Virus genome (UHGV): UHGV-0198113
DNA: 39,138 nt
Direction: 5' to 3' (one strand)
Origin: a virus
This document shows positions 11,701 through 27,325 of this stretch, piece by piece. The notes under the pieces were generated by a model, which worked only from the letters and a program-made list of their open reading frames with translations, did no database searches and was not told the DNA's origin. Position 1 is the stretch's first letter. Every line of letters begins with the position of its first letter. Position numbers and translations under genes: made by a program.

Positions 11701-13091
11701 GCTGTCAGTGTTGCCTGCGTCGGGTATTTACTGTTAACGTAATCCGTTAACTGTTGTTTCGTTTTCCCGTAAGCCAAAGCAGCATCTGACGCGATACCGT
11801 TTAACTCTAACGCACGAATCGGTCCCCACGTATCGACGTGTGGGTTATCTTTACGGGTAACGTGCTCGTGAGCTGGTGCGTTGCGGTAAAGCTGTTCCAC
11901 CAACTGATGGTATTTGACAATCAGCTGATAAACGTCATTGCTTACGTCGGCGTCTGGCGCACCAGGTAACGCAAGGAATTGTGCATAATCGTTTTCAGCC
12001 GCCCACCAGTTTAGATTAACGTTGGTTTTATATTTCAACCATTTCGCAACATCTGTTTTGCTATAACCTGCTGAGAATTCGGATGGTGGGTTATCAACGT
12101 TGAACGTGTAGTCCATCGTCTGTTTGTTAGTCGTCACCTCGATAACATACACACCGTTACCAGGCTGACGAACAACACTAAACGTTAACTCACCTTTCAA
12201 TTCGCTGTCGGTCAGTCCGTTGATTAGCGTATAGTCGTAATCGGTTGAGCCGCTTCCTAACGCTACGGTCAGGCGCAAAGAGATTTTACGCTGCTTTAAT
12301 TGAAGACGAAGGATACTTGCACCGCCATTCGCGTAGCACAACATCCAATCGATTTGTTCATTTGGGTTAATGCTTCCCATGTTCGGGAAAATACCAGGAA
12401 TACGGTATTTCATCGACAGGGAGTAGTCATTTAACGTCGTGGTTTTGTACGTAACGGCAAAACGGCGTTTTGTAGTGTTGTACGTATAACCGCCTTTGTT
12501 ATCGTACGTTGCATACTGTTCTGACGTGATAACCGTGCCGTTAGCACGATGCTCAATATCTAACGTGTTACGTGCAATCGGGTCTAACCGATTTACAACG
12601 TTACCTAAGGAGTCGCCTAAGCCTGCGATGGCTTGCATTAACTCCAGTTCACCTTTCCAGTTTTCCCAATCGAACTGAATGTCAACGGGTGGAAAGTAAA
12701 CGTCCCCGATAACGGTGTCCCATTGACACGTAGACGGGTATTTATCTTTATTTAACTCACGCTCTGCGCTAATCTGCTGCTGTGTGGCTTCACCACAACC
12801 AACGGCATGATAATCCACAGTAAAATTCGACTTGTATTTGTCGTTAACAATCCAAATCATCCCGTGAATGAGATAGGCTGTGCGCAACATACCTGTCTCG
12901 TACGGGTGTGTAATTACGTAATCGTCGCCTAAGGTCAGTGTTTTGCCGCCGCTCTTGACCACCAGGGACGTGGTGAAAAAAGGGGCGTGGGCAGGTACCA
13001 ACATTCGGTACTTCGTACCAATGACGGCGACCGCTTCACCGGTTATTTTATTCCCCGGTTCTTTGAAGTGTGGGTCTAGGACGACAGCCAT
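8769..13091 (-). CDS. giant structural protein (1440 aa), tail-fibre/tailspike-like
   Basis: Track ORF; AGGAG RBS; N-terminal 'HAPFFTTSLVVKSGG...GDDYVITH' motif; stops 10 nt before the next gene starts (operon). Confidence 0.8.
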   Translation of the reverse strand: MAVVLDPHFKEPGNKITGEAVAVIGTKYRMLVPAHAPFFTTSLVVKSGGKTLTLGDDYVITHPYETGMLRTAYLIHGMIWIVNDKYKSNFTVDYHAVGCGEATQQQISAERELNKDKYPSTCQWDTVIGDVYFPPVDIQFDWENWKGELELMQAIAGLGDSLGNVVNRLDPIARNTLDIEHRANGTVITSEQYATYDNKGGYTYNTTKRRFAVTYKTTTLNDYSLSMKYRIPGIFPNMGSINPNEQIDWMLCYANGGASILRLQLKQRKISLRLTVALGSGSTDYDYTLINGLTDSELKGELTFSVVRQPGNGVYVIEVTTNKQTMDYTFNVDNPPSEFSAGYSKTDVAKWLKYKTNVNLNWWAAENDYAQFLALPGAPDADVSNDVYQLIVKYHQLVEQLYRNAPAHEHVTRKDNPHVDTWGPIRALELNGIASDAALAYGKTKQQLTDYVNSKYPTQATLTAQNKLLRTAANKTVDGTIRTLPGFTSFTTEVDPVSMSKYVNPYFSESYVSNGYTYHGALRYTGTKNGFGTYFNGVPANLQDIDFIVTGRKTASGNEAVGMVGLRFYENPGSNSGKFIQLTGEVLSGRVSIGLQLNGYANPQPEVQYVSQIADPAIPDDDFTLRFQLKRTGNVFDIVVTVNGKTYSARVNFVNMDAALEALENQHHFKTLINNVADSVSIISQNKGNTVTIKKAPDVVDETRLGAQFAVDPKSIKFIGQGSTEVNAGNNPVTFQAGTNQLVLYADDRGLQWRGKKLLDPTTVGPYLPGNTAGGTGLFYANSTATVTITGNGIKASPFVATFVLPTATDTTSLAGWQLTDEFGTAENLAATPALITKLDAEFTGKLVAVKSYINDMPLTSSITIDKITFNLGNVANTPDVDLPISVAQQTELDKYSPKVHRHPSTAFGVENATTDKRGLIKFGLAVDDATLALDASVVMDQTARIEKLEATVGNVDSGARIDIIRYGETGNDLIEVTVKDKILVTLPATTYFIGGETYQVPLMTVNTAERFPKLNTEIVAGVFVDIVDNRATYVIHDSYSQAETDTMTRVGMIGVNDISEVYLTELRNVTRLGDFRELSEHIANDNAHIQRSAPRAALGLRNLTVGAPCWASGLQAVTRGEADWRFAMGNTYKALDGVKYDSLASKWIFDPKGVSDNVHGFIHNLFPLFSNAGVRVTWETESNAKTGTVLETILGCWRNNANEFVRLSLLVTRGYRLTDSKGEYCYAGFGLNFANGKSVVLGFTPTKRVTPAPWSTLQPDITFTHRRGANNDVTFNATLTLAGTVYTIVVYLSDVDKYVSCTAAGGTTQKISLTDRLGELDISPIVNDPYTPIYYGLGGLYDDEVRANLRTTADSITANKSYGTLLDYIANYSALNRARLIETAGPSSDPETLNALVAKEFDDNLADYNALPIPPYLNKERVMSFLGENNKLNAVIIRD

Positions 13092-13158: not shown

Positions 13159-14421
13159 GTGACTACTGCTTATCAAGTGCGGCCCGACAGCGCTTTTGGC
13201 TTCTCTCGAGAGTCCCGTACCTGGGGAGCCATCGATGTCACGCAACCTTTAGCTACACTGTGTTCGGATTACCACACCTTTGAGGTCGGCCTGAGTGCGC
13301 TTGGTAAAGACTATACGTTAGTCAGCCAGTATCACCTTGCTGAATTACAAAACCGAACCGATACTTTACAAGACTGGTTGAATGAAAAAGCCGGTGTGGT
13401 TATTCCTACCTTAAAAGCAGGATTACCGAAACTGGAATTCAGCTGGGCGCATTACCAATCGATTAACGCAGACGTACCCGTTGAGTCTTACCTGTGCCCT
13501 GCGGGTTATCATTACAGTCAGGATTTCAGTCTGGATGATGCGACAGATGTGGTGATAGTCTGTGAAGACAAATGGAAAGACAAATACCGTAACGGGGTGC
13601 TATACAACATCAACGGGCAATGGGTGCCGCATCAATCTGATTCTGTTGGTGTACGATTACCTGGTGCTGGGAATATCGTTAGACGTGCAGGTACACCAGA
13701 TATCGGTTGCATGGTTTTTGATGCGCTCGGTGCGGTGAAAACATACCCGATTGCTAATCTTACCTTAAACAAACTCGACACCACGCGCGATTACTATTCA
13801 ACGTTAATGATTTCGTTGCCCGAATCCATAACCGGTAAAACCGTAGGGTTCGTTATTGGTGGGATGTTACGTTGGCTGCCTGCGAACGGTTATTTCTCCG
13901 ATCGTGCGATTATGATTTCTTTACCGAATTTCGATCTTGCGCGCACGGTGTTAGAAACACGGCGTTACTACGATTGGGATGCTATCGGTGTAGGGGATTT
14001 ATCTTCACCTGCTAACGTTCAACGAATTCGCAACCCAGAAACATTAAAAGCGCTCTTACTTCACGAATCTTCGTTTATTTTTACGGTGGATAATCCGTAT
14101 TTAGAAGAAGAGATTGTGGGCGTATCGCATAACGCGATTTGGGGACGTTGTTATCTCAAAGACCCTAACGATCCTGATTCTGAAAAACCGTTAGGCTATT
14201 TAAATAACCGATTCGGAAAGACGGTAGGTTATTGGCCTACGTGGGAAGAAGGTGAGTGGGTATTTAACACCACCGAGTTCGACAGTCAAAACTACGTATT
14301 TCGTGAAGCTCGCTGGTATAACCAGAAGAAGATTAACGATGCGCAAGCGATAGTCGGGCCCTTCGGCCCCTGGGAAAAAGTGTATTTAGAAATGCATCGT
14401 TTTCGTGCACGAAAAAAATAA
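13159..14421 (+). CDS. hypothetical protein (420 aa), GTG start
   Basis: Track ORF; GAGGA RBS upstream of GTG; followed by a strong terminator. No motif recognised. Confidence 0.6.
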   Translation: MTTAYQVRPDSAFGFSRESRTWGAIDVTQPLATLCSDYHTFEVGLSALGKDYTLVSQYHLAELQNRTDTLQDWLNEKAGVVIPTLKAGLPKLEFSWAHYQSINADVPVESYLCPAGYHYSQDFSLDDATDVVIVCEDKWKDKYRNGVLYNINGQWVPHQSDSVGVRLPGAGNIVRRAGTPDIGCMVFDALGAVKTYPIANLTLNKLDTTRDYYSTLMISLPESITGKTVGFVIGGMLRWLPANGYFSDRAIMISLPNFDLARTVLETRRYYDWDAIGVGDLSSPANVQRIRNPETLKALLLHESSFIFTVDNPYLEEEIVGVSHNAIWGRCYLKDPNDPDSEKPLGYLNNRFGKTVGYWPTWEEGEWVFNTTEFDSQNYVFREARWYNQKKINDAQAIVGPFGPWEKVYLEMHRFRARKK

Positions 14422-14427
14422 AGTAAC

Positions 14428-14470
14428 CTCCTACCCTCTTAGAGGGTAGGAGTAGCACGTTTTTTTTTTC
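14428..14470. terminator. bidirectional rho-independent terminator
   Basis: 11-bp perfect stem CTCCTACCCTC/GAGGGTAGGAG with TTA loop (14428-14452), T11 run on plus (14460-14470) and T-rich tract on minus; sits between convergent genes. Confidence 0.75.
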
Positions 14471-14891: not shown

Positions 14892-15857
14892 TTACCGTGG
14901 ACCCGAAGTAGGACCGTGTACACCGTCGTGGATGTGTACGCTGAAAGTAATGCCCGCAATAACCGCATCTTTAACCGTAAAGATACCCACACCTTCCCCA
15001 GTACCGCCGTACTTGAAGTTTTTAGCCACTTCAAGATTACCGGTGAATTGTGCTTCATTCCCTTCTTGTTTAAAGTTCGGCGTTTTAAAGGTGGTCGAAC
15101 TCCCCGCTTCCGTTAACCAGGTTTGTGTTTTAAAGGTAACGGATTTCGATGCTTCTGTATTGCGAACTTCGCATTTCTCATTAATCGTTTTTGTTTCCAG
15201 GTTAATAGAACGCTTTGAATAAATGAACGCATCTTCTTTGTTGATGTTCACTTTTGATAGCATCGCATTCTCAAACCCGAGATCATCTTCGACCGAGTTA
15301 ATGTAATACTTGTTCCCTTTATGGTCAACGCATTGCCACGATCCGTTTGCGTTGTCAAACTGGAATAACCACGCCGCTTTCTCGCCATTCACCATACATG
15401 TTCTTAGCGTGATATGTTTGTCAATCGTCGAGACATTCAACACATACGCATTGGACAGGTCATCCGCCATTTGGTTTTCGGGGTCAGCCGACCACGCATA
15501 AACCGCATCTTCTAATCGCTTAACGTTAGCGAAATTCAAATCAATCCAAAAATAAATATCGGTTTTCCCCAAACGTAACAAGATAACGTAGTCTTCTCGT
15601 TTAACGTCAGGGGAATTAATTCGGTTGGAGTTAAACTTCCACCACTTTGCTGTTATCGTGTTACCCGTCTTAATGGTTAGGTTATCTGTTGCACCAGACG
15701 TTTCATGCGTCTTTTCAGTTGCTGAAGAAACAGATTGCACCACAGTAGGGTTAGCAAAGTTGGTTTCAATTGGTATCACTTTTACCCGATCTGTACCACG
15801 GGGTTTGTCTTCCGCGACGATACCAATTGAGAAAAAATCAACACTGGATTTCTCCAT
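14892..15857 (-). CDS. hypothetical protein (321 aa)
   Basis: Track ORF; AAGGAA RBS 7 nt upstream on minus strand. No motif recognised. Confidence 0.7.
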   Translation of the reverse strand: MEKSSVDFFSIGIVAEDKPRGTDRVKVIPIETNFANPTVVQSVSSATEKTHETSGATDNLTIKTGNTITAKWWKFNSNRINSPDVKREDYVILLRLGKTDIYFWIDLNFANVKRLEDAVYAWSADPENQMADDLSNAYVLNVSTIDKHITLRTCMVNGEKAAWLFQFDNANGSWQCVDHKGNKYYINSVEDDLGFENAMLSKVNINKEDAFIYSKRSINLETKTINEKCEVRNTEASKSVTFKTQTWLTEAGSSTTFKTPNFKQEGNEAQFTGNLEVAKNFKYGGTGEGVGIFTVKDAVIAGITFSVHIHDGVHGPTSGPR

Positions 15858-15908: not shown

Positions 15909-16243
15909 ATAGGGACTGAAGTGCGAGTTCAGTCCCTACGGACACGTTTCTTTCGAAACGGAGTTACCACGTTATTAGGAAACAGACCAATGTCTACTGA
16001 GAAGAAAGGCGGATTGGACGAAGTCATCGAACAGTTCAAACGCTACAACCCAGCTATTCCTCGGTAATCATAGTATTACTTAAAATTTACAGATTGTCCC
16101 TTTATTCTGCTACTCGGGATACCGGTAGGGGGTAGGGGGCATTATGTATACGGATATAAATAGCGGAGGTATACGTAGTATACCGACATACTCTTCCCAG
16201 AGGAACGTAGTGACTTCCTTATTCCTTTTTAGGAGAATAATCC

Positions 16244-16996
16244 ATGCTGACAGCAGAAGTTTTTGTTAACCAATACTTAGATGAACTCTTTGCTAAGACC
16301 TATTTAGAGATCGCCTCTCCTATCGTTGAAGATTTAGTAGGTTCAAAATACCCTGCTAAATTAGTCGAAATCAAAACGGTTAAGCCTGAAAACGTTCCTA
16401 CTGACGAACCAGAGGATAAATATCGGATTACCGCTTATGCTAATAGCGTATTCAGTATTCTTAACAGCGAAACTGGTGTGATGCTTATTTACAGTATCAT
16501 TACCGAAAGCGATTTTAATTCAGTACGCTACGCTATCGAAAATCTGGCTAACATTGGACCGCTTAGCCATGACCCGACCATTATAACAGAACAGTGGGCA
16601 TTAATGTCTGTATTTGCCCACTTCCCTTTATTCCGCCACGGAATTGCATTAATTCATCGTGAATTTGAAGTACCTTACAATGCGGAACTAACGTTACTGG
16701 GTCCTGGTTTTAATCTCTACCCGTTAAGGGACGATAACGATAAGTTATACGGCGTCCATATCTACTTTAAATGCTTCGAGGAGCTGTACGTTCTTGAGTT
16801 AATTGCTTCGGATATAGTAAAAGAAATCCCAGAAGTAGAAACGATTTCCAGAAATACTCACGTGATCGAAATCAATCCCAACGATCCGATGTTGAAATAC
16901 CGTGATGAAGTCGATATACTTAGCATCGCTACTGTTAGAGGCTGGGGCGCTGCTGAAATTACCAATAACCGCTTGTTATTGTTAAAACACGCGTAA
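16244..16996 (+). CDS. hypothetical protein (250 aa); paralog-family member 1
   Basis: Track ORF; AGGAGA RBS; C-terminus '...VRGWGAAEITNNRLLLLKHA' is a diverged copy of the GW...G(K)QLLF module. Confidence 0.7.
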   Translation: MLTAEVFVNQYLDELFAKTYLEIASPIVEDLVGSKYPAKLVEIKTVKPENVPTDEPEDKYRITAYANSVFSILNSETGVMLIYSIITESDFNSVRYAIENLANIGPLSHDPTIITEQWALMSVFAHFPLFRHGIALIHREFEVPYNAELTLLGPGFNLYPLRDDNDKLYGVHIYFKCFEELYVLELIASDIVKEIPEVETISRNTHVIEINPNDPMLKYRDEVDILSIATVRGWGAAEITNNRLLLLKHA

Positions 16997-17023
16997 GTAA
17001 AAAAACCGAAAAGGAGAATAATC

Positions 17024-18784: not shown

Positions 18785-19558
18785 ATGAAAATCCATTTAG
18801 ATGCACTTTTTGAATCAGAACACTACGTGATTAATGGCTCGCTGGCCTCGTTGTTGCTGGACGATAAATATAATCGAACACTCCAATTGCGGTCCGTCGA
18901 ATCCGCACCAACAGAAGACGTAGGTCTTTACCAACGTGTCAATCATACCCGTGGGGAATATCGCCGATATAAACCCGACTCACTCAGCGTTAAGCTCTGG
19001 CAACTAAGTACAGGCAAAGTATTAAGTTACCACACGGTTGGCCTGTATTACGTTGAACGTGCACATCTGTGGTTAGAAGAAGTTAAAGAGATGGATTATG
19101 ATCTCTTAAGCAAAAGACTGCGCGATAACAATAACAGCTTACCGATACGTAATTATTTCTCCACAGTCGAAAATAGTCGTTGTTTCGTTTCCCGTAAATC
19201 CATGATATTGCCTGGGGTCGAAGTTCAGACGACATTAAAAGACGCGGTCGTGAAGAAAATCTTTCATGAGTCTAAACATGTCGGTTTTCGTATTTATCTA
19301 ACGCACAAAAGGCCATTTACCGTGATTAGTGTTGTTAACGTACCTGAAGGATCATCAATCATTCAAGAACTCCCTGACGCCCGTGACCGTTGCCCTAATG
19401 AGCCGCTCTACTTAATGTCAGGAACAAAATCAGCCTCGTTGATCTCTCGTTACAGCATGATAGATGTTGTTGACGCTGCTATGAAGCTAGGTTGGAAAGA
19501 AGTGCAGCAACATGGTAAACAGTTGCTGTTTATTGCAGATGTAAAACTTAATCAATAG
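18785..19558 (+). CDS. hypothetical protein (~257 aa); paralog-family member 4
   Basis: Track ORF 18701-19558 trimmed to the first ATG with an AAGGA RBS (track start is a TTG inside the previous gene); C-terminus 'KLGWKEVQQHGKQLLFIADVKLNQ'; internal copy 'LWQLSTGKVLSYH'. Confidence 0.7.
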   Translation: MKIHLDALFESEHYVINGSLASLLLDDKYNRTLQLRSVESAPTEDVGLYQRVNHTRGEYRRYKPDSLSVKLWQLSTGKVLSYHTVGLYYVERAHLWLEEVKEMDYDLLSKRLRDNNNSLPIRNYFSTVENSRCFVSRKSMILPGVEVQTTLKDAVVKKIFHESKHVGFRIYLTHKRPFTVISVVNVPEGSSIIQELPDARDRCPNEPLYLMSGTKSASLISRYSMIDVVDAAMKLGWKEVQQHGKQLLFIADVKLNQ

Positions 19559-19570
19559 TGAGGTGGTACC

Positions 19571-20152
19571 GTGTACCGATTAATAGAAATGCGAAAAGAC
19601 GTATGGTTGGAAAACCTCGTCAATGGGGAGCTAGAAGGAATTGAGCTTTCCTTACCCGAAAAGGCGGACACGGTACTGGCCTTTCTGGTAAAACAGAAAA
19701 GTAGTCTGGACCCGATAGGTATCTTTGCTGTAGAACACACCGATCCTCGTGGCCCTACGCTACGTTGTATCTGCTGCGCTATGGATAAGATTCCTGCATC
19801 GCCGTTTGTGCAATACGCACGACGTAAAGCACCAGCGGGTGGACTTTTGTGGGTATCGTTACTGCCTGACGTAAGGATCATTCGGGACGACTACTCGGCG
19901 TTTGTACAAGCCAGTAAAATCAACCTGTATAATCCGAGTGCTGAACGTACGGATATGCCCTTCAGTATTACGTTAGACGACGACGGAACGCAGGAGGGTA
20001 TCGAGTCCATTACGGAATTGGTTAACTCCTATCCAGTTGCCACTATCGAGTTAGAAAACCCGAAGCGTTTACCGCTCGGAGACTTACTCGAGTGGATAGA
20101 ACTGAACACCGAGTTTCTGGTAGGTTCTCGTTTGTATCGGTTCGATGTTTGA
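19571..20152 (+). CDS. hypothetical protein (193 aa), GTG start; possible diverged paralog
   Basis: Track ORF; GAGGTGG RBS 7 nt before GTG; C-terminus 'LEWIELNTEFLVGSRLYRFDV' loosely resembles the module. Confidence 0.6.
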   Translation: MYRLIEMRKDVWLENLVNGELEGIELSLPEKADTVLAFLVKQKSSLDPIGIFAVEHTDPRGPTLRCICCAMDKIPASPFVQYARRKAPAGGLLWVSLLPDVRIIRDDYSAFVQASKINLYNPSAERTDMPFSITLDDDGTQEGIESITELVNSYPVATIELENPKRLPLGDLLEWIELNTEFLVGSRLYRFDV

Positions 20153-20157
20153 ACGCA

Positions 20158-20188
20158 GTGGGAGCATTGCTCCCACTTTCTTTTTTGT
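20158..20188 (+). terminator. rho-independent terminator closing the paralog operon
   Basis: 8-bp stem GTGGGAGC/GCTCCCAC with 3-nt loop, followed by TTTCTTTTTT. Confidence 0.7.
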
Positions 20189-20207
20189 TCAGTACGATTA
20201 GAAATAA

Positions 20208-20232
20208 TTTCAGATATATATTACTTAGGTGA
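20208..20232 (+). promoter_or_regulatory. conserved 25-nt motif TTTCAGATATATATTACTTAGGTGA (copy 2)
   Basis: Identical to copy 1 except for one A/T; lies between a terminator and the secreted-protein cassette, about 48 nt upstream of the ATG at 20281. Confidence 0.4.
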
Positions 20233-20280
20233 GAGTTACGATTAACTCTTTTAACCTGTTAACCTTTAAGGAGTATTTCA

Positions 20281-20736
20281 ATGAAAACTTTTATCGCATT
20301 CTTAGTAACCCTTTTAACTTTCGGTCTCAATAACGCTTACGCCGCAATCGGAAGCTGGGAAGGACTTCAAAGTCCGGGAAATGCTGTTTACGAAATCGAA
20401 GACGAAAATGGGAACAGCTTGTCTATCAACTGCGATACCGCAACGGCTAATCGTAAGTTTTACGGTCGCATGGTTTGGTATTACGGTGAACCGGTCGGTT
20501 CAACTAATGCCGAAGACAACGAAATGAGTATTGTCGTAAACGGCAAAAACTATATCATTCCCACTATTGACGGCAGCGACAAAGCAGAAAAAGCTTGGGT
20601 TGCCTTCGCTAATGCTATCGCTAATGCAAAAAGCTTCGGTGTGGCTATCAACGGTAACGAAGCCGCTAACTTTATTGTAGATGGTGAGCGTCTGCCCGAA
20701 ACTTTCTTTAAGAACTGTGGACATAGCCGTCCTTGA
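20281..20736 (+). CDS. small exported protein with signal peptide (151 aa)
   Basis: Track ORF; AAGGAG RBS; N-terminal hydrophobic signal 'MKTFIAFLVTLLTFGLNNAYAA'; two Cys; paralog of the next gene. Confidence 0.8.
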   Translation: MKTFIAFLVTLLTFGLNNAYAAIGSWEGLQSPGNAVYEIEDENGNSLSINCDTATANRKFYGRMVWYYGEPVGSTNAEDNEMSIVVNGKNYIIPTIDGSDKAEKAWVAFANAIANAKSFGVAINGNEAANFIVDGERLPETFFKNCGHSRP

Positions 20737-20773
20737 TAAATAACTTAATTTTTAAACTAAAAGGAATATAACC

Positions 20774-21244
20774 ATGAAACTGTCTAACATCTTCTTAGCT
20801 ATCGTTTTAACTGTAAGCGCCACTGCTGCACAGGCCATTCCGAACATGTGGGGTAGTGGCTTTGCAATGGGTGAAACCGAGTATGGTATCGATAACGGTG
20901 GATGGGGTATTACCATTAGCTGTACCGGTAATCCAGATGAAAACAACATTTTACCACACAAGATCTTTATCTCTAAAGATGGTAATGTGGTGGCCAACTC
21001 GGAAGATAACGACATTAGTTTCGTTATCGATGGTGAAGAGTTCTGGGGTGTAGTTCCTGACGGCACACGTAATACCGACAATACTTGGGTTAGTTTTGTA
21101 AAAGCAATCTCTACAGCAACTGAGTTTGACTTATACCTCGACCAGAAAAAGGTTGCTACCTTTAACCCATCAGCCAAAAACGTTAAGAAAGTGATGGACG
21201 GTAACTTCCTCGAATCTTGCTGGAACACCGAATACGAACAATAA
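20774..21244 (+). CDS. small exported protein with signal peptide (156 aa), paralog of 20281-20736
   Basis: Track ORF; signal 'MKLSNIFLAIVLTVSATAAQA'; shared segments (I-x-C, SEDN/AEDN, VVNG/VIDG, WV[AS]F, C near the C-terminus). Confidence 0.8.
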   Translation: MKLSNIFLAIVLTVSATAAQAIPNMWGSGFAMGETEYGIDNGGWGITISCTGNPDENNILPHKIFISKDGNVVANSEDNDISFVIDGEEFWGVVPDGTRNTDNTWVSFVKAISTATEFDLYLDQKKVATFNPSAKNVKKVMDGNFLESCWNTEYEQ

Positions 21245-21251
21245 TTACAGG

Positions 21252-21267
21252 AAAAAAAGGGGGGGGG
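21252..21267. repeat. homopolymer tract A7G9 in an intergenic region
   Basis: Direct reading: A run 21252-21258, G run 21259-21267, overlapping a weak hairpin (GGGGAC/GTCCCC) and about 25 nt upstream of the RBS of the next gene. Confidence 0.8.
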
Positions 21268-21304
21268 ACTTCGTGGTCCCCGTTCTATTTAAGGAGTGCG
21301 TGAA

Positions 21305-21691
21305 ATGAATATTAAAACTATACTTTATACTATCATTATTTTCTGCGCTATCGGTATTACCGGTACGTACGCTTTCGGTGAATCGGATATCCGCTACTAC
21401 GACCCAGCACCAGATTCCCCAATTATTAATCCTGATGAAACACCAACACTAATGCGGAGCTTCGGTAAACTAGAGGTGTACCGCCTGATGCGTGACAGTA
21501 CATGCACCGGACTAATCATTGCCGATAACGGCGCACGTGTCTATCAACGTCTAACTGATATTGCTTGCGAACAACCAAAAGTCATGTCGGTTAGTATTCA
21601 CCCGTTATCAGTTGGTAATTATACCGCTGTAGATTTCTTTCATAATGCCGAATTAATCGGTCGTGTTACTTTAAATCGCCCTGCTGAATAA
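21305..21691 (+). CDS. small exported protein with signal peptide (~128 aa)
   Basis: Track ORF 21296-21691 trimmed to the ATG 8 nt after AAGGAG; hydrophobic N-terminus 'MNIKTILYTIIIFCAIGITGTYAFG'; Cys-containing. Confidence 0.7.
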   Translation: MNIKTILYTIIIFCAIGITGTYAFGESDIRYYDPAPDSPIINPDETPTLMRSFGKLEVYRLMRDSTCTGLIIADNGARVYQRLTDIACEQPKVMSVSIHPLSVGNYTAVDFFHNAELIGRVTLNRPAE

Positions 21692-21709
21692 TCTAAAGGA
21701 GTAGTTACG

Positions 21710-22195
21710 ATGAAACGTTTACACACACTGATGTTCTTTCTGGCTTTCATGTTTATCGGTGTTACACCAACTGTTGATGCAGCATCAGTGAAAGATGCGC
21801 TTACATGCGACACCAACGCATGGGACGGACAACCTAACGCGTGTCCAAACATCAACGACGTGTACGATACCGATAAGTCATTTAAAGCGGTTGTTGATAA
21901 AACACTGGACCCGGTAGGATTGAATGGTATGTTCGGTGCTAAAGGTTACATGGATGGCCCCGGCGGTGCGATGTACCCGGTAAACATTAATAACAAAATC
22001 TGGATTGAAAGTGGTGGCTGTAAAGCTAACGCTTGTGGCTGGGAATATATCGTAACGTTATACAACCCACAAACCAACGAACTCGTCGGTTATTACTACA
22101 ACATCGACCCCGGTTACCTGATTTGGTTCGGTGATATCGGTGTTGCTGAATTCGCTTATCTGGTTAAGAAATACGCGGAACAATCTAAATACTAA
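21710..22195 (+). CDS. exported Cys-containing protein (161 aa); possible Ivy-like periplasmic inhibitor
   Basis: Track ORF; AAGGAG RBS; signal 'MKRLHTLMFFLAFMFIGVTPTVDAA'; 'GGCKANACGWEY' is a CKxxxCG loop like the Ivy CKPHDCG motif (from memory). Confidence 0.75.
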   Translation: MKRLHTLMFFLAFMFIGVTPTVDAASVKDALTCDTNAWDGQPNACPNINDVYDTDKSFKAVVDKTLDPVGLNGMFGAKGYMDGPGGAMYPVNINNKIWIESGGCKANACGWEYIVTLYNPQTNELVGYYYNIDPGYLIWFGDIGVAEFAYLVKKYAEQSKY

Positions 22196-22206
22196 GGACG
22201 TTTATC

Positions 22207-22617
22207 ATGAAAAATATCATCAACACGCTTCTCGTTGCGATCGCTGTTCTCTTCACTGCTAACGTGACAGCAAAAACAATAAAATTACCGGATGGTATCA
22301 AATACGTCAACAGTACCGATGATTTCTACTGTACAGAAATCGATGGTTTGTACTGCCAGACGAAGAATCTGTTTAAATACAAAGGTAACAGATACGTATT
22401 CGTTGTTGAGCAAGGCGGTGCCTGGTGCTACGACAGCCCTATGTCGGTACTTAACCTCGAAACGTGGAAAGCCCAACGTCTCGAATACAACGACAAGCGT
22501 CTGTGCTCTGGAAATAACAAACCGTTCTTCCAAGTCGTAGATGGTGTGCCGTGGGTAGGGATATTAGACACCTCTGAAAAATCTATCGTTGTGGCTATGG
22601 ATAAACTTAAAATTTAA
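22207..22617 (+). CDS. small exported protein with signal peptide (136 aa), 4 Cys
   Basis: Track ORF; signal 'MKNIINTLLVAIAVLFTANVTA'; Cys spacing similar to the next gene product. Confidence 0.75.
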   Translation: MKNIINTLLVAIAVLFTANVTAKTIKLPDGIKYVNSTDDFYCTEIDGLYCQTKNLFKYKGNRYVFVVEQGGAWCYDSPMSVLNLETWKAQRLEYNDKRLCSGNNKPFFQVVDGVPWVGILDTSEKSIVVAMDKLKI

Positions 22618-22627
22618 GGAGTAACTC

Positions 22628-23017
22628 ATGCGTTTCATTTGCGCTTTAGCATTCTTCTTCTCTCTGAGCGTAACTGCTTCTACCCAGGTTAACGATTTAC
22701 TGCTGACAGCAAACAACAACGACGATTATCAGTACAATCCACCCAGTTTTGAAGTCTGTGAGAATGGAGAAACAACCTGTCAAGAAGTCGGCGCAGATGG
22801 GCGCTACATTCTGGTGAAAGCCGACGGGGGCGCGATGTGCCCAGCCGGTTACTATTTCCTACTTGATTCTGTCGCAAAAGAGGTTCTTCCTATCACTACG
22901 AAAACGTGCGACCCTACTGTTGTCTTATCGCTTGCTAAAAGCAAATCTCGCGACCGTTACTTAATCGTTATCGAAGAACGCGGTGAGATGGCAGGCGCTA
23001 TCGAATTAGATTACTGA
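22628..23017 (+). CDS. small exported protein with signal peptide (129 aa), 4 Cys
   Basis: Track ORF; AAGGAG RBS; signal 'MRFICALAFFFSLSVTAS'; Cys pattern C-x6-C...C...C. Confidence 0.75.
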   Translation: MRFICALAFFFSLSVTASTQVNDLLLTANNNDDYQYNPPSFEVCENGETTCQEVGADGRYILVKADGGAMCPAGYYFLLDSVAKEVLPITTKTCDPTVVLSLAKSKSRDRYLIVIEERGEMAGAIELDY

Positions 23018-23029
23018 GTGTAGTCTTGG

Positions 23030-23065
23030 CCCCGGTACGTTCCGATTCGTCCGGGGTCCTTTTTA
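23030..23065 (+). terminator. rho-independent terminator (bulged GC-rich stem + T tract)
   Basis: CCCCGG...CCGGGG stem followed by TCCTTTTTA, directly after the stop at 23017. Confidence 0.5.
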
Positions 23066-23094
23066 CGACTTGTTATACCTAAAGGAGAATTATC

Positions 23095-23571
23095 ATGCAA
23101 CTGTCTAACGTCTACCAAGCAGCACAATTTCATCATGACCTGTCCGCCAAACCTGAACAGATTCGCCACAACCTGACAGTGGCTTGGAAACTATTACGTA
23201 TTGCAGAAGCTGCTCGTATAGGCGACCAGTCAACAATCATCGACACAGTACGTACATTACATCCTGTCGACCTGGAAACAATTTGGACGTTCGATTTAAC
23301 CCGAATTTATCACCGCCGATTTAATGCAGCCGTTGACGCAATTCGTCCTTATTTCCATTACTTACGGACAACGCGAGAAAGCGATACTGCACTCGAATGG
23401 GTATTGGTACAAAGTGTATGGAGCGACTACATTTATCTCCTTTCTTTAGAGACGGGTGAATGTATCGTTGCTAACGAAGTCTTTTCAAGTAACGCGGAAA
23501 TGTACCGCTCCTACGCAACGATTAAAGGTGAATCCCAGCCTATTTTATCACTCACGCACTTAGGGCTCTAA
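23095..23571 (+). CDS. hypothetical protein (158 aa)
   Basis: Track ORF; AAGGAGA RBS; single-gene unit flanked by terminators. Confidence 0.7.
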   Translation: MQLSNVYQAAQFHHDLSAKPEQIRHNLTVAWKLLRIAEAARIGDQSTIIDTVRTLHPVDLETIWTFDLTRIYHRRFNAAVDAIRPYFHYLRTTRESDTALEWVLVQSVWSDYIYLLSLETGECIVANEVFSSNAEMYRSYATIKGESQPILSLTHLGL

Positions 23572-23580
23572 TTAGCCCGG

Positions 23581-23608
23581 CCCCGACCACGTTCGGGGTT
23601 TCTTTTTT
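23581..23608 (+). terminator. rho-independent terminator
   Basis: CCCCGA/TCGGGG stem followed by TTTCTTTTTT. Confidence 0.55.
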
Positions 23609-23628
23609 GATTTAAAAGGAAATGCCAG

Positions 23629-24237
23629 ATGAACGAAATCACACTAGTTCGTTTTCTTGAAGCCATGTTGAACGCAGAGCAGCATCCACACACCCCGTTA
23701 TTCATCGATCTGATGGAAGAAGAAGTTGAAGGGTTCTTAGCTTACCCGCGTTTACGGGAATACTTTAAGCGTAAAACACCGGTGGCGTATGACAAACTGG
23801 TTTACGCGCTCGAGAACAGTACGACTTTACTGACAACGCCGTTCAAAGCAATGGAAGCTCTCGACCCAGCGGGTACTGTCAGTATTCCGCAACGTGTTGT
23901 GTTCTATTACGTGGACAACGGTCGTATTAAAGCAGACGTTGTTAACTGGATCTCTGAAGGCGAAGTTCCTGAAACCCGTACCTTTAACTTGTGTCCGGTA
24001 GAAGAAGGTTGGATGGTCGGTAGCCATTATTCTTATCCGTACCAAAGCATTAAATCCCCGTATCTCTATCCGGTTTATCTGGATGGCGTAACGCCAGGGA
24101 AATGTGCGGCAGTAACCAATCTGATTTGCACACTAACAATGGAGATGATGGCTTCTGAAGCAGGTCGGGTTTGGGTAGAAAACTCAAAGAACATTGATGA
24201 CTGGATTTCAATGGGATATCAACCGTATACCAAATAA
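23629..24237 (+). CDS. hypothetical protein (202 aa)
   Basis: Track ORF; AAAGGAAA RBS; no metallophosphatase (Mre11-type) motifs seen. Confidence 0.7.
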   Translation: MNEITLVRFLEAMLNAEQHPHTPLFIDLMEEEVEGFLAYPRLREYFKRKTPVAYDKLVYALENSTTLLTTPFKAMEALDPAGTVSIPQRVVFYYVDNGRIKADVVNWISEGEVPETRTFNLCPVEEGWMVGSHYSYPYQSIKSPYLYPVYLDGVTPGKCAAVTNLICTLTMEMMASEAGRVWVENSKNIDDWISMGYQPYTK

Positions 24238-24241
24238 CACT

Positions 24242-24290
24242 TGGGAGAACCTTCGGGTTCTCCCATTCGTTTTTATTTTTTTTTCTTTTT
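24242..24290 (+). terminator. rho-independent terminator with C(UUCG)G tetraloop
   Basis: Stem GGGAGAACC/GGTTCTCCC with TTCG loop, followed by a long T-rich tract (TTTTTATTTTTTTTTTCTTTTT). Confidence 0.8.
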
Positions 24291-24320
24291 ACACCACACT
24301 CCGTGATTATGGAGGTGGGT

Positions 24321-26825
24321 ATGCTAAAAGTTGAACGTATTGTACTCAAAGGTTTTACGGGGATGGGATTGCACGAAATTGAAACGTTCGATTTCACTAT
24401 CCAGTCACCGACAACGATTATCCTGGGTGGGAACGGTTGTGGGAAGACCAGTTTACTGTCCGTATTTTTGCCCTTAGCTCCGGCTAAAACAGAATTCAGG
24501 GATGGGGGTTCTTACACGAATTATTGTTTAGTCGGCGATCAACGTTACCGTTTCAAAGTTGCCCGTAAAGGCAACTCGTTGGTTTGCGATATTGAGAATC
24601 TCACTACGGGAACGAAGATTGTCGAGCAAGGTAACGCAAAGGTTTACAATTCACGCGTTGAAGAAATCACTGGTATTACGAAAGAAATTAAAGAATTGTT
24701 AAACGGTGAGGTGTTGTTAACGGACGCGGGAACGGAATTACGTCGTAAATGGTTTTACCGTTTAAGTACCTCTGACCTTACTTACGCGCTAGGGTTCTAT
24801 CAGAGATTGCGGAAAAACCTCACCGTCTTAAACGGTGGCATTGAAATTACCAGTCGTAAGATCGCAGAGTTACGAACACGTGTTATTGAAAATGAAGAAG
24901 AACGTCAACAGTTAGCGGTAAGATTAAAAGGCTTGGAATCGGATTTACGCGAACTGAACCGACAAATCGAACAGCTACCGGGTTTAAATCGTGGCGTTAC
25001 TATCGAATCAATCCAGGCGTTATTAAACGGCTTAGGTCCAACTATCGACGCAATATTACAACATCGTGGTGGTTTGCCTACCGACGAACAGATACTGAAC
25101 GCACGACACAATGAAGCCACAGCACGCGAAGCTGTCGTTTCAGCAGAAACGGAAGTATCAATGTTGAATAAAGATCTGTCGTTATTGATGGACGAGTCAA
25201 CGCGACAGGATTACCTGATGCGCAATCACGAGGGTCTCAAGAACACTCTCGCACGTTTACGTGAAGTGCTTACCAAATGGGACACCGAGCATCTCTTTCC
25301 TGGACTGTTTAGTGAGAGTGCGAATTTAGACCAGCTACGTGCTGCAACCGATGCACGCGTTTGGGGCCAACGACTGGGAACAACACTGGACGCCATTCAT
25401 TCAACCGAAAAGCTCAACGTTTTGGAAGAACGTCTACTGGTGATGGATCAGAAGACCGCAGGATTGCGAGATAGACTCCAGCGCGTAGAGAATGTTTTAC
25501 AAAACTTGAACCACGAACGAAATCACTATCTGGAAACAGCAGAAGTAGATTGCCCGCAATGTCGGTTTAAATTTCGACCTGGGGTTACGCGTTCTTTGTC
25601 TGAACTTGAAACCTCGATTAGAGGCCAACAGCAACAACGTACGGAGCTTCAAACACAGTTAGACAGTATATTACGCGATCGTGTCGAACTGGAATCTGAT
25701 GTAACGTATATGCGTCAGGTTCGTGAAATCGTGTTGACGTACTCAAAGGACCCGGTTTTAAGCATGTTCTTTAAGTGTCTACAAGAACGTAATGTCTTTA
25801 CAGAATCACGCGAACAGTTCGGAAGTCTCTGCGCGGCTTTTGACAGTGAGCTGTATTCTGCTATTGAATATCATGAAACCCGTCAACGGTTAGTGAAGGC
25901 AGAAAAAGAATGGCAAGATGCGGTAGCTGCTGTGGGTAACGTCGATGGTGCTTTACAACAGAAAATTGCTTTCCAACAATCGCGTTTAGGTAAAGCCACA
26001 GAAACGCTCTCAGTGCGTCGTAGAGAGCACGAGTTAGCTAATACGACACTTACCTATCTAGAGAGCGTTAAACGTGCTATAGACGATTTTAGCGCGTTAT
26101 TCGAACGGTTAGAGAATGACGTTAAGGTTACTTTGACAAACACAGTTGTCGAAGAACTCTTACGGGCACGAGAAGGGAAACTGGATGCGTTTACGACAGC
26201 ACGTGAGCGTTATCGTCAAATGGAAAGTGAACTGAATCAGCTCAATACGTTGGAACGCGAACTTGCGGATTTACAAGCCCAGCAGTTTAATAACAAATTG
26301 ATGATTCAGGCGTTCTCGCCAGAAAAAGGTGTACTCAGAAAGTATTTTTACAATGCTATCGTCAGAATCACAGAGTTAATGACGCGCTATATCGAACAAG
26401 TCTGGACGTACCCCATGCGAGTTATGCCTTGTGATCTCACCGACGGTGATTTGGATTATACTTTTCCTGTCCAACTAAAAACACATCCTGAACCCGTTCC
26501 TGATGTGCGTAAAGGGTCTAAGGCACAACGTGCTATATTCAATCTGATGTTCAGACTGACTGCGTATAAAGCGTTGAAATTACATCAGTTTCCTTTGCTA
26601 TTGGATGAACCCTCAGAGGGTATGGACGAAGAACACCGTAATAACCTGGTTGGTTTTATTAAAACGTTAGCAAACTCAGGGGAGTTCTCGCAGTTACTGG
26701 TGGTCTCCCACGAAGCTGAAGTCCATTCTAAACTTAACGAAGCATCGTACTGTGTCATTGAACCGGAAGGGGTGACATTACCTGCGGTGTATAACGAGGG
26801 AGTAAAAATTGTTTATGCAAACTGA
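24321..26825 (+). CDS. Rad50/SbcC-like SMC-family ATPase with coiled coil and CxxC zinc hook (~834 aa)
   Basis: Track ORF 24303-26825 trimmed to the ATG 5 nt after GGAGG. Walker A 'GGNGCGKTSLL'; mid-protein 'CPQC' hook within predicted coiled coil; C-terminal Walker B/D-loop 'LLLDEPSEGMDEE' and 'LLVVSHE'. Confidence 0.8.
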   Translation: MLKVERIVLKGFTGMGLHEIETFDFTIQSPTTIILGGNGCGKTSLLSVFLPLAPAKTEFRDGGSYTNYCLVGDQRYRFKVARKGNSLVCDIENLTTGTKIVEQGNAKVYNSRVEEITGITKEIKELLNGEVLLTDAGTELRRKWFYRLSTSDLTYALGFYQRLRKNLTVLNGGIEITSRKIAELRTRVIENEEERQQLAVRLKGLESDLRELNRQIEQLPGLNRGVTIESIQALLNGLGPTIDAILQHRGGLPTDEQILNARHNEATAREAVVSAETEVSMLNKDLSLLMDESTRQDYLMRNHEGLKNTLARLREVLTKWDTEHLFPGLFSESANLDQLRAATDARVWGQRLGTTLDAIHSTEKLNVLEERLLVMDQKTAGLRDRLQRVENVLQNLNHERNHYLETAEVDCPQCRFKFRPGVTRSLSELETSIRGQQQQRTELQTQLDSILRDRVELESDVTYMRQVREIVLTYSKDPVLSMFFKCLQERNVFTESREQFGSLCAAFDSELYSAIEYHETRQRLVKAEKEWQDAVAAVGNVDGALQQKIAFQQSRLGKATETLSVRRREHELANTTLTYLESVKRAIDDFSALFERLENDVKVTLTNTVVEELLRAREGKLDAFTTARERYRQMESELNQLNTLERELADLQAQQFNNKLMIQAFSPEKGVLRKYFYNAIVRITELMTRYIEQVWTYPMRVMPCDLTDGDLDYTFPVQLKTHPEPVPDVRKGSKAQRAIFNLMFRLTAYKALKLHQFPLLLDEPSEGMDEEHRNNLVGFIKTLANSGEFSQLLVVSHEAEVHSKLNEASYCVIEPEGVTLPAVYNEGVKIVYAN

Positions 26826-27292: not shown

Positions 27293-27325
27293 CTTTTTAC
27301 TTTTTTGCGTCTCTAAGGTTTGCAA

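Follow-up and report, generated by a model that had tools for sequence, protein, structure and literature searches.

The homopolymer pair A7G9 that lies between two small genes of an SPN3US-like jumbo phage is, in our judgement, most likely a slippage polymorphism of little or no selective consequence, flanking a leaky terminator that was brought in by an acquired gene. The polymorphism in length between related genomes is observed; we infer that it originated by slippage and that it is close to neutral, the latter from a comparison with control homopolymers. In this account, A7G9 would be an expanded homopolymer pair that flanks, on the 5′ side, a weak terminator hairpin of the Rho-independent type, the hairpin itself being part of a horizontally acquired yfjT-family cassette sitting mid-operon among small secreted-looking proteins. 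The selected feature would be the hairpin (7 bp, 4-nt loop, U-rich tail), and replication slippage would have expanded the runs from a short ancestral GGAGAGGGGG / GGAAAGGGGG. Run lengths would keep changing because they are unconstrained, given that the tract is non-coding, that the stem needs four G and that no promoter spacing is involved. Alleles with at least 8 G would add a short G.U-rich helix, with a slight shift of leakiness possible.

The window, i.e., the whole stretch of 39,138 nt that was analysed, carries the A7 run at positions 21252–21258 and the G9 run at 21259–21267 on the plus strand, as read from its letters and with exactly the coordinates and lengths given in the first-pass annotation. 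Positions 21250–21300 read GG AAAAAAA GGGGGGGGG AC TTCG TGGTCCCC GTTCTATTT AAGGAG TGC, and the full interval from stop codon to start codon reads TAA TTACAGG AAAAAAA GGGGGGGGG AC TTCG TGGTCCCC GTTCTATTT AAGGAG TGCGTGAA ATG. The tract starts 8 nt downstream of the stop codon (21242–21244) of the gene at 20774–21244 and ends 23 nt before the AAGGAG at 21291–21296, with the next ATG 38 nt away, at 21305. G9 is the sole run of G or C longer than 5 in the window, where the other G runs reach 5 at most, and G runs of at least 9 are expected 0.04 times per window under an independent-base model. The tract is real and is an outlier among the G and C runs of the window. It is also present in the independent assembly ERZ1026973, which is 99.9% identical to the window, and a one-off assembly error is therefore unlikely as the source of its length. 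Exact-pattern scans for the tract plus the hairpin gave no matches in IMG/VR and GTDB genomes, and in metagenomes they gave the ERZ1026973 contig alone. An Rfam scan of 19500–24500 found nothing at the tract and a lone sub-threshold chance match elsewhere.

Both runs have the length of 6–7 or more at which slippage is expected, and the tract is intercistronic, outside every reading frame. Repeats known to switch expression on and off sit inside reading frames or within promoter spacers. A7G9 lies neither inside an ORF nor between −35 and −10 elements, and no promoter-like hexamers flank it.

Relatives were found by exact-protein look-up of the 156-aa or 128-aa protein in public assemblies. Six alleles, with 5–7 A and 6–10 G, were seen among 15 independent assemblies of SPN3US-like jumbo phages, most of them automated assemblies of unknown sequencing platform in which single counts may be off by one. 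Apart from the two runs, all 15 share the same 90 nt around the tract. A6G6 is the commonest allele (GCA_007654195.1, SRR25756616, ERR10009646, SRR14630333, SRR32904609, and SRR25052219). A7G6 was found in SRR36526197, SRR35641400, and SRR36525901, A6G7 in SRR31988626 and SRR28382238, A7G9 in ERZ28629076 (the window’s own scaffold) and ERZ1026973, A7G10 in ERR12370681, and A5G6 in SRR23925006. The earlier claim that the tract is prone to slippage is borne out by these six alleles with identical flanks, and the comparison of related genomes, proposed as a check on that claim, returned differing rather than invariant lengths.

The compared genomes are mutually 89–99.9% identical over 20 kb, and variation within the cassette amounts to about ten synonymous sites. 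One cassette haplotype (0–1 substitutions in 531 nt) is found in nine genomes and yet carries four tract alleles, which shows that tract length changes faster than nearby substitutions accumulate. Between populations, then, length change outpaces point substitution, as is expected of a contingency locus; the unchanged A7G9 in the 99.9%-identical assembly indicates that the tract is not unstable on very short time scales.

As controls, 20 kb from ten related assemblies were aligned with the window (11 genomes). Intergenic homopolymers vary in this alignment: T10 at 14460 (14460–14469) has lengths of 9–10 (two alleles), A7 at 16999 (16999–17005) lengths of 5, 7, and 8 (three alleles), T9 at 24276 (24276–24284) lengths of 7, 8, 9, and 10 (four alleles), and T6 at 27301 (27301–27306) lengths of 6 and 8; a further T6 at 20181 has lengths of 6–7. 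The G run has four alleles in the same 11 genomes, equal to T9 at 24276. In the closest five genomes (96.6–99.5% identical), the G run measures 7, 10, 6, 6, and 6 and the T9 control 8, 8, 10, 9, and 8. Runs in coding sequence (A6 at 12976, A7 at 14412, A6 at 15832, and G5 at 22826) are constant in the same contigs, which are therefore free of general homopolymer noise. The A/G tract is thus no more variable than comparable unselected repeats. Since the intergenic controls vary as much, the tract is unexceptional among unconstrained runs and its variability alone is uninformative on function. The general caution is that variability of a tract across genomes shows function only if control tracts vary less.

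A different behaviour was noted for GGTAGGGGGTAGGGGG at 16122–16139, where two G5 runs stand 2 nt apart and, unlike G9, are invariant in all aligned relatives. It sits in the divergent intergenic region between the genes at 14892–15857 (minus strand) and 16244–16996 (plus strand).

The core hairpin occupies 21264–21281 on the plus strand (GGGGACU-UCGU-GGUCCCC, about −12 kcal/mol). It has a 7-bp stem with five G-C pairs and a 4-nt loop, begins 20 nt past the stop codon, and is called by the terminator scan on both strands; as a G+C-rich stem-loop that follows the 3′ end of its gene, it has the form of an intrinsic terminator. In the predicted minimum-energy fold of 21235–21310 (plus-strand RNA), all nine G are helical: G21264–21267 pair with C21278–21281, and, beyond a 1×1 internal loop, G21259–21262 pair with UUCU at 21283–21286 (G.U, G.U, G-C, G.U). 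Four of the nine G therefore make up the G-C part of the 5′ arm, and the first five lack C partners and form weak G.U-rich pairs only. That the G run is partly in the hairpin stem, as the first-pass annotation had it, agrees with the scan and the fold, which place those four G in the conserved stem.

Folding of the allelic series predicts an identical 7-bp core in all alleles. With 6–7 G the tail stays free, and with at least 8 G an extra four-pair G.U/G-C helix takes UUCU, giving in the window an extended helix at 21259–21286 that would occupy the start of the U-rich tail. By this prediction, G9/10 differ from G6/7 by about 3 kcal/mol and the core hairpin stays the same. The G alleles found (6/7 and 9/10, no 8) straddle this predicted structural threshold, a pattern that may be a signal but is not significant with three independent long-allele genomes from two lineages. 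The tail itself, GUUCUAUUU at 21282–21290, is interrupted and has U at 6 of 9 positions. It scores 1.7, or 1.5 with the extended helix, against 3.2–4.0 in three nearby clear terminators and 2.9 at the terminator site of SPN3US, by a classical tail-score formula of which only the ranking should be trusted. Given a U-tail score less than half that of neighbouring terminators, the hairpin is probably leaky whatever the tract length, and the effect of tract length on an already weak terminator is predicted to be small.

The arrangement of genes around the hairpin likewise points to incomplete termination. A strong terminator-like hairpin at 20157–20177, followed by TTCTTTTTT, forms the upstream boundary of the transcription unit, and the next clear terminator-like hairpin (23579–23600, then TCTTTTTT) lies downstream of the small-gene block; both hairpins are on the plus strand. 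The conserved genes downstream of the hairpin at 21264–21281 lack a promoter-like element of their own, and for this reason the hairpin is probably only a partial stop, ending part of the transcripts. In relatives without the cassette these genes are contiguous, so that the inserted hairpin must pass a good share of transcripts, or else the conserved downstream genes would be silenced.

Two functional explanations fare about equally, and both seem unlikely to us. The first is that the hairpin is a tunable attenuator, in which slippage in the G and A runs would alter hairpin length and the free U tail and so generate readthrough subpopulations for the downstream secreted-protein genes, making the tract a contingency locus. 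In its favour, several alleles occur even within a single cassette haplotype, the G run is in the stem and at least 8 G are predicted to add the 4-bp helix that takes UUCU, the hairpin lies inside an operon whose downstream genes lack their own promoter-like element, and giant phages use conditional termination in which stem length has been proposed to matter. Against this, the hairpin-free intergenic control homopolymers match the tract in variability, the surplus G find no C to pair with and change the predicted energy little, the terminator is weak in all alleles, and the tract sits outside reading frames and promoter hexamer spacers; together these speak against reading the tract as a switch. 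The short A6G6 is moreover the commonest allele, the long ones being confined to two rare lineages. What weighs against our neutral reading is that the phage lineage has newly gained its A run and that termination can be affected by A tracts lying upstream of a terminator.

The second holds that the hairpin is an RNA 3′-end or processing element, which would guard the upstream mRNA from 3′ exonucleases or mark a processing site, the A and G runs being irrelevant. A stem conserved across E. coli, a distant phage copy, and the window next to a poor and variable U tail would fit such a role, as would the need for transcription past the hairpin to reach the downstream genes; but a standard terminator scan accepts the hairpin and its T-rich tail, and clear terminators with proper T runs stand behind related yfjT genes and at the syntenic sites of SPN3US and phiEaH2, before the gp180 homologue.

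A narrower proposal, to which we give slightly less credence still, is that the G run is a polarity tuning knob, the range of about 6–10 G setting how far the hairpin reaches into the U tail and hence the ratio of short to long early transcripts. If true, it would control how much is made of four conserved, secreted-looking proteins of a jumbo phage of the nucleus-forming type, and it would be a contingency locus acting by transcription termination, not frameshifting.

That the lengths are homopolymer miscalls or poly-G artefacts of two-colour chemistry is very improbable, for although the comparison contigs are mostly automated assemblies of public runs and one short contig (L026) begins just 3′ of the G run, A7G9 occurs in two independent ENA assemblies, several alleles recur in 2–6 samples, coding A6, A7, and G5 keep a constant length in these contigs, and allele differences of up to 4 G exceed typical miscalls.

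Several further candidates were considered and set aside. Phase variation of a promoter spacer was rejected, as A7G9 has no flanking hexamers, and so was transcriptional slippage with a coding consequence, the tract being non-coding. A G-quadruplex was rejected because a single G run is predicted to allow a two-tetrad structure at best, and in long alleles only. In minus-strand RNA, C5 and then U7 come after the core hairpin, with the U run 5 nt from the stem, and there is no minus-strand gene converging on the site; a minus-strand terminator was rejected, since across alleles the T run lies 2–6 nt off the stem and the score falls from 1.6 (G6) to 0.4 (G9). The start of contig L026 just 3′ of the G run was rejected as a sign of heterogeneity, as it is not at the expected branch point of a k-mer graph.

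The 156-aa gene at 20774–21244 (plus strand), with a signal-peptide-like N-terminus, is the coding part of the cassette and the second of two YfjT-family paralogues; the first (20281–20736, plus strand, 151 aa) is present in all relatives. Both paralogues are assigned to Pfam PF27224 (YfjT) in precomputed annotation; our Pfam scan of the small proteins returned no family, the library used probably predating the PF27224 model. The second paralogue shares 77% amino acid and 75% nucleotide identity with a gene of E. coli islands and 26% with the first paralogue. Neither the 156-aa gene nor the tract and hairpin are present in five IMG/VR phage contigs, whose 128-aa protein is 84–90% identical in amino acids to that of the window, and in them the first paralogue is followed directly by the TAAGTATTAATCTTTTTTAGAGTGCGTGAAAATG of the 128-aa gene. 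The absence of the unit from these five relatives marks the window from about 20752 to 21291 (plus strand), comprising the gene, the A/G tract, the hairpin, and the tail, as an insertion.

The homologous unit in an unrelated genome was found in E. coli. Across 94% of its length, the cassette is 75% identical in nucleotides to a gene that 203 of 5,426 complete E. coli genomes carry, located in CP4-57-type islands with dynamin-family, RdcB, and patatin-like genes upstream and DUF905, DUF932, antirestriction, and JAB genes downstream. The homology spans the intergenic region up to the next start codon, including the hairpin and the ribosome-binding site. A GTDB scan with a 20-mer conserved between phage and E. 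coli gave no match. A tblastn search of the 156-aa protein against the phage collection also gave no match, which makes deposited phage genomes unusable for comparing the tract.

The E. coli counterpart of the tract region reads ACAGGA GAGGGGG AC TTCC TGGCCCCC GATTTATTTAAGGAGTGCATGAAATG, with GAG in place of the A run. As it has the hairpin and the tail but GAGGGGG instead of long runs, the hairpin and tail are an old feature of the cassette, which the long runs are not. The more distant phage copy in L042 (protein 94% identical) reads ACAGG AAA GGGGG CTTCGCAGTCCCC GTTTTATTT and is thus A3G5. Its two stem changes, A-U to G.U and U.G to U-A, both keep pairing, and the hairpin has been kept across E. 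coli, L042, and the window through such structure-preserving changes. The series from GAGGGGG through A3G5 and A6G6 to A7G9 or A7G10 looks like a stepwise expansion, a history that the tract would preserve. Another island carries a yfjT homologue, 45% identical, and behind that gene, too, stands a clear terminator with a TTCG loop.

As to how the cassette arrived, an imperfect direct repeat flanks the insertion (AAAGGAATATAAC at 20760–20772 and AAATGAATATTAA at 21303–21315), which suggests insertion by recombination at microhomology. The right junction, GAGTGC(A/G)TGAAA(A)TGAA, is common to the window, the cassette-less relatives, and E. coli; the region concerned is 20752–21309 in the window and 4001–4530 in L039.

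The genome surrounding the cassette has no close relative at the DNA level among deposited phages, as judged by megablast. By gene order and protein similarity, it belongs among the SPN3US- and phiEaH2-like jumbo phages. The gene downstream of the tract, which together with its ribosome-binding site spans 21291–21691 on the plus strand (AAGGAG at 21291–21296, ATG at 21305), encodes a 128-aa protein that is 47–50% identical to SPN3US gp180 and its homologues and has a hydrophobic, signal-like N-terminal segment; the ATG at 21305 is also used in public gene calls for identical contigs, giving 128 aa. Neighbouring genes follow the order gp176, gp180–gp185, and the window further encodes large virion structural proteins, a baseplate protein, and an SbcC-like protein. 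Six consecutive small genes (128–161 aa) at 20281–23017 all have putative signal-peptide-like N-termini; four of the six are homologous to SPN3US gp180–183, and none of the six has a known function.

The only promoter candidate upstream of the block at 20281–23017 is a conserved intergenic element at 20178–20250 on the plus strand, consisting of CAGATATATATTAC at 20211–20224 and a hairpin, AGAGTTA-CGAT-TAACTCT. The sole copy of the candidate phage promoter motif lies at 20216. The element, 55–73 nt long, is 85–92% identical to intergenic sites of SPN3US-like phages, where it occurs 4–6 times per genome in 74 records, mostly at positions without annotation; the records listed are of Enterobacterales jumbo phages, 72 of the 74 by organism count, plus two Vibrio phages. 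Copies include those at 20178–20250 of the window, L039 3925–3975, L046 1520–1580, and L047 1520–1570. It is probably a phage-specific promoter with a leader hairpin. The CAGATATATATTAC motif presumably resembles the core of phiKZ early promoters, in keeping with its repeated intergenic distribution; a literature search for TATATTAC returned nothing relevant. For a phage whose replication is believed to take place in a protein shell, a putative exported block under an early-type promoter comes as a surprise.

In E. coli CP4-type islands, the yfjT-like gene is likewise preceded by this motif, the similarity extending over about 50–60 nt. It is found behind the terminator of the patatin-like gene in 2,301 of 5,426 complete E. 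coli genomes, before varying small genes, the yfjT-like one among them. In the phage, there is no promoter-like element at 20736–20774, directly upstream of the cassette gene; the E. coli copy has the CAGATATATATTAC element upstream.

The cassette resembles phage morons, which are independently acquired genes that bring a terminator along, in that an extra gene with a 3′ terminator-like hairpin has been inserted between two conserved genes and is absent from five relatives at the same site. Unlike morons, the phage cassette lacks its own promoter-like element, and its carrier is a lytic jumbo phage, not a temperate one.

Hypermutable homopolymers are known as contingency loci in phages: Campylobacter Fletchervirus phages have poly-G tracts in their receptor-binding genes, and T2 and T4 have runs of at least 6 bases (Gomez et al., 2025, PMC12633550, citing Sorensen et al., 2021). 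A7G9 is like such phage homopolymers in being a long G run in a lytic phage genome that is polymorphic in length between related genomes. The phage contingency homopolymers of known function lie within reading frames and switch a protein on or off by frameshifting, unlike A7G9, which is intercistronic and no more variable than control runs. We therefore regard A7G9 as a polymorphic simple repeat and not as a contingency locus in the functional sense, unusual in its place but otherwise unremarkable.

A non-coding G-repeat is also known from Helicobacter pylori, where the repeat in the 5′UTR of tlpB is targeted by the small RNA RepG. A7G9 shares with it the property of a variable G run in leader or intercistronic RNA, where post-transcriptional control could be altered, a functional analogy only, as the organism and mechanism differ.

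The tract itself is of minor interest, as a further case of homopolymer length polymorphism in phages, here non-coding and in a little-studied jumbo lineage. Its context is more informative, namely a gene-plus-terminator unit common to SPN3US-like jumbo phages and E. coli CP4-type islands. The sharing of this unit suggests that small genes for secreted proteins pass between these lytic giant phages and the islands of bacteria.

Published long-read maps of transcripts from the jumbo phages phiKZ and 201phi2-1 show intrinsic-type terminators, many of which are read through, as well as alternative transcription units (PMC11512511, PMC10914365). The hairpin at 21264–21281 is like these in being a G+C-rich stem-loop with a short T-rich tail between co-oriented jumbo-phage genes, and it probably yields short transcripts alongside longer ones. 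Its sequence departs from the phiKZ consensus, whose 5′ arm is rich in C, and here we infer termination; its tail reads CTATTT and the phiKZ motif ends in TTAT. A homopolymer flank is not described for the published motifs of either phage. Upstream of gp180 in SPN3US (L001 2395–2500), a promoter-like element is followed within about 35 nt by the hairpin GGCTACC TTCG GGTAGCC and then TATTCTTTTTT. This combination of element and hairpin resembles the conditional 5′UTR terminators and short RNAs described for phiKZ.
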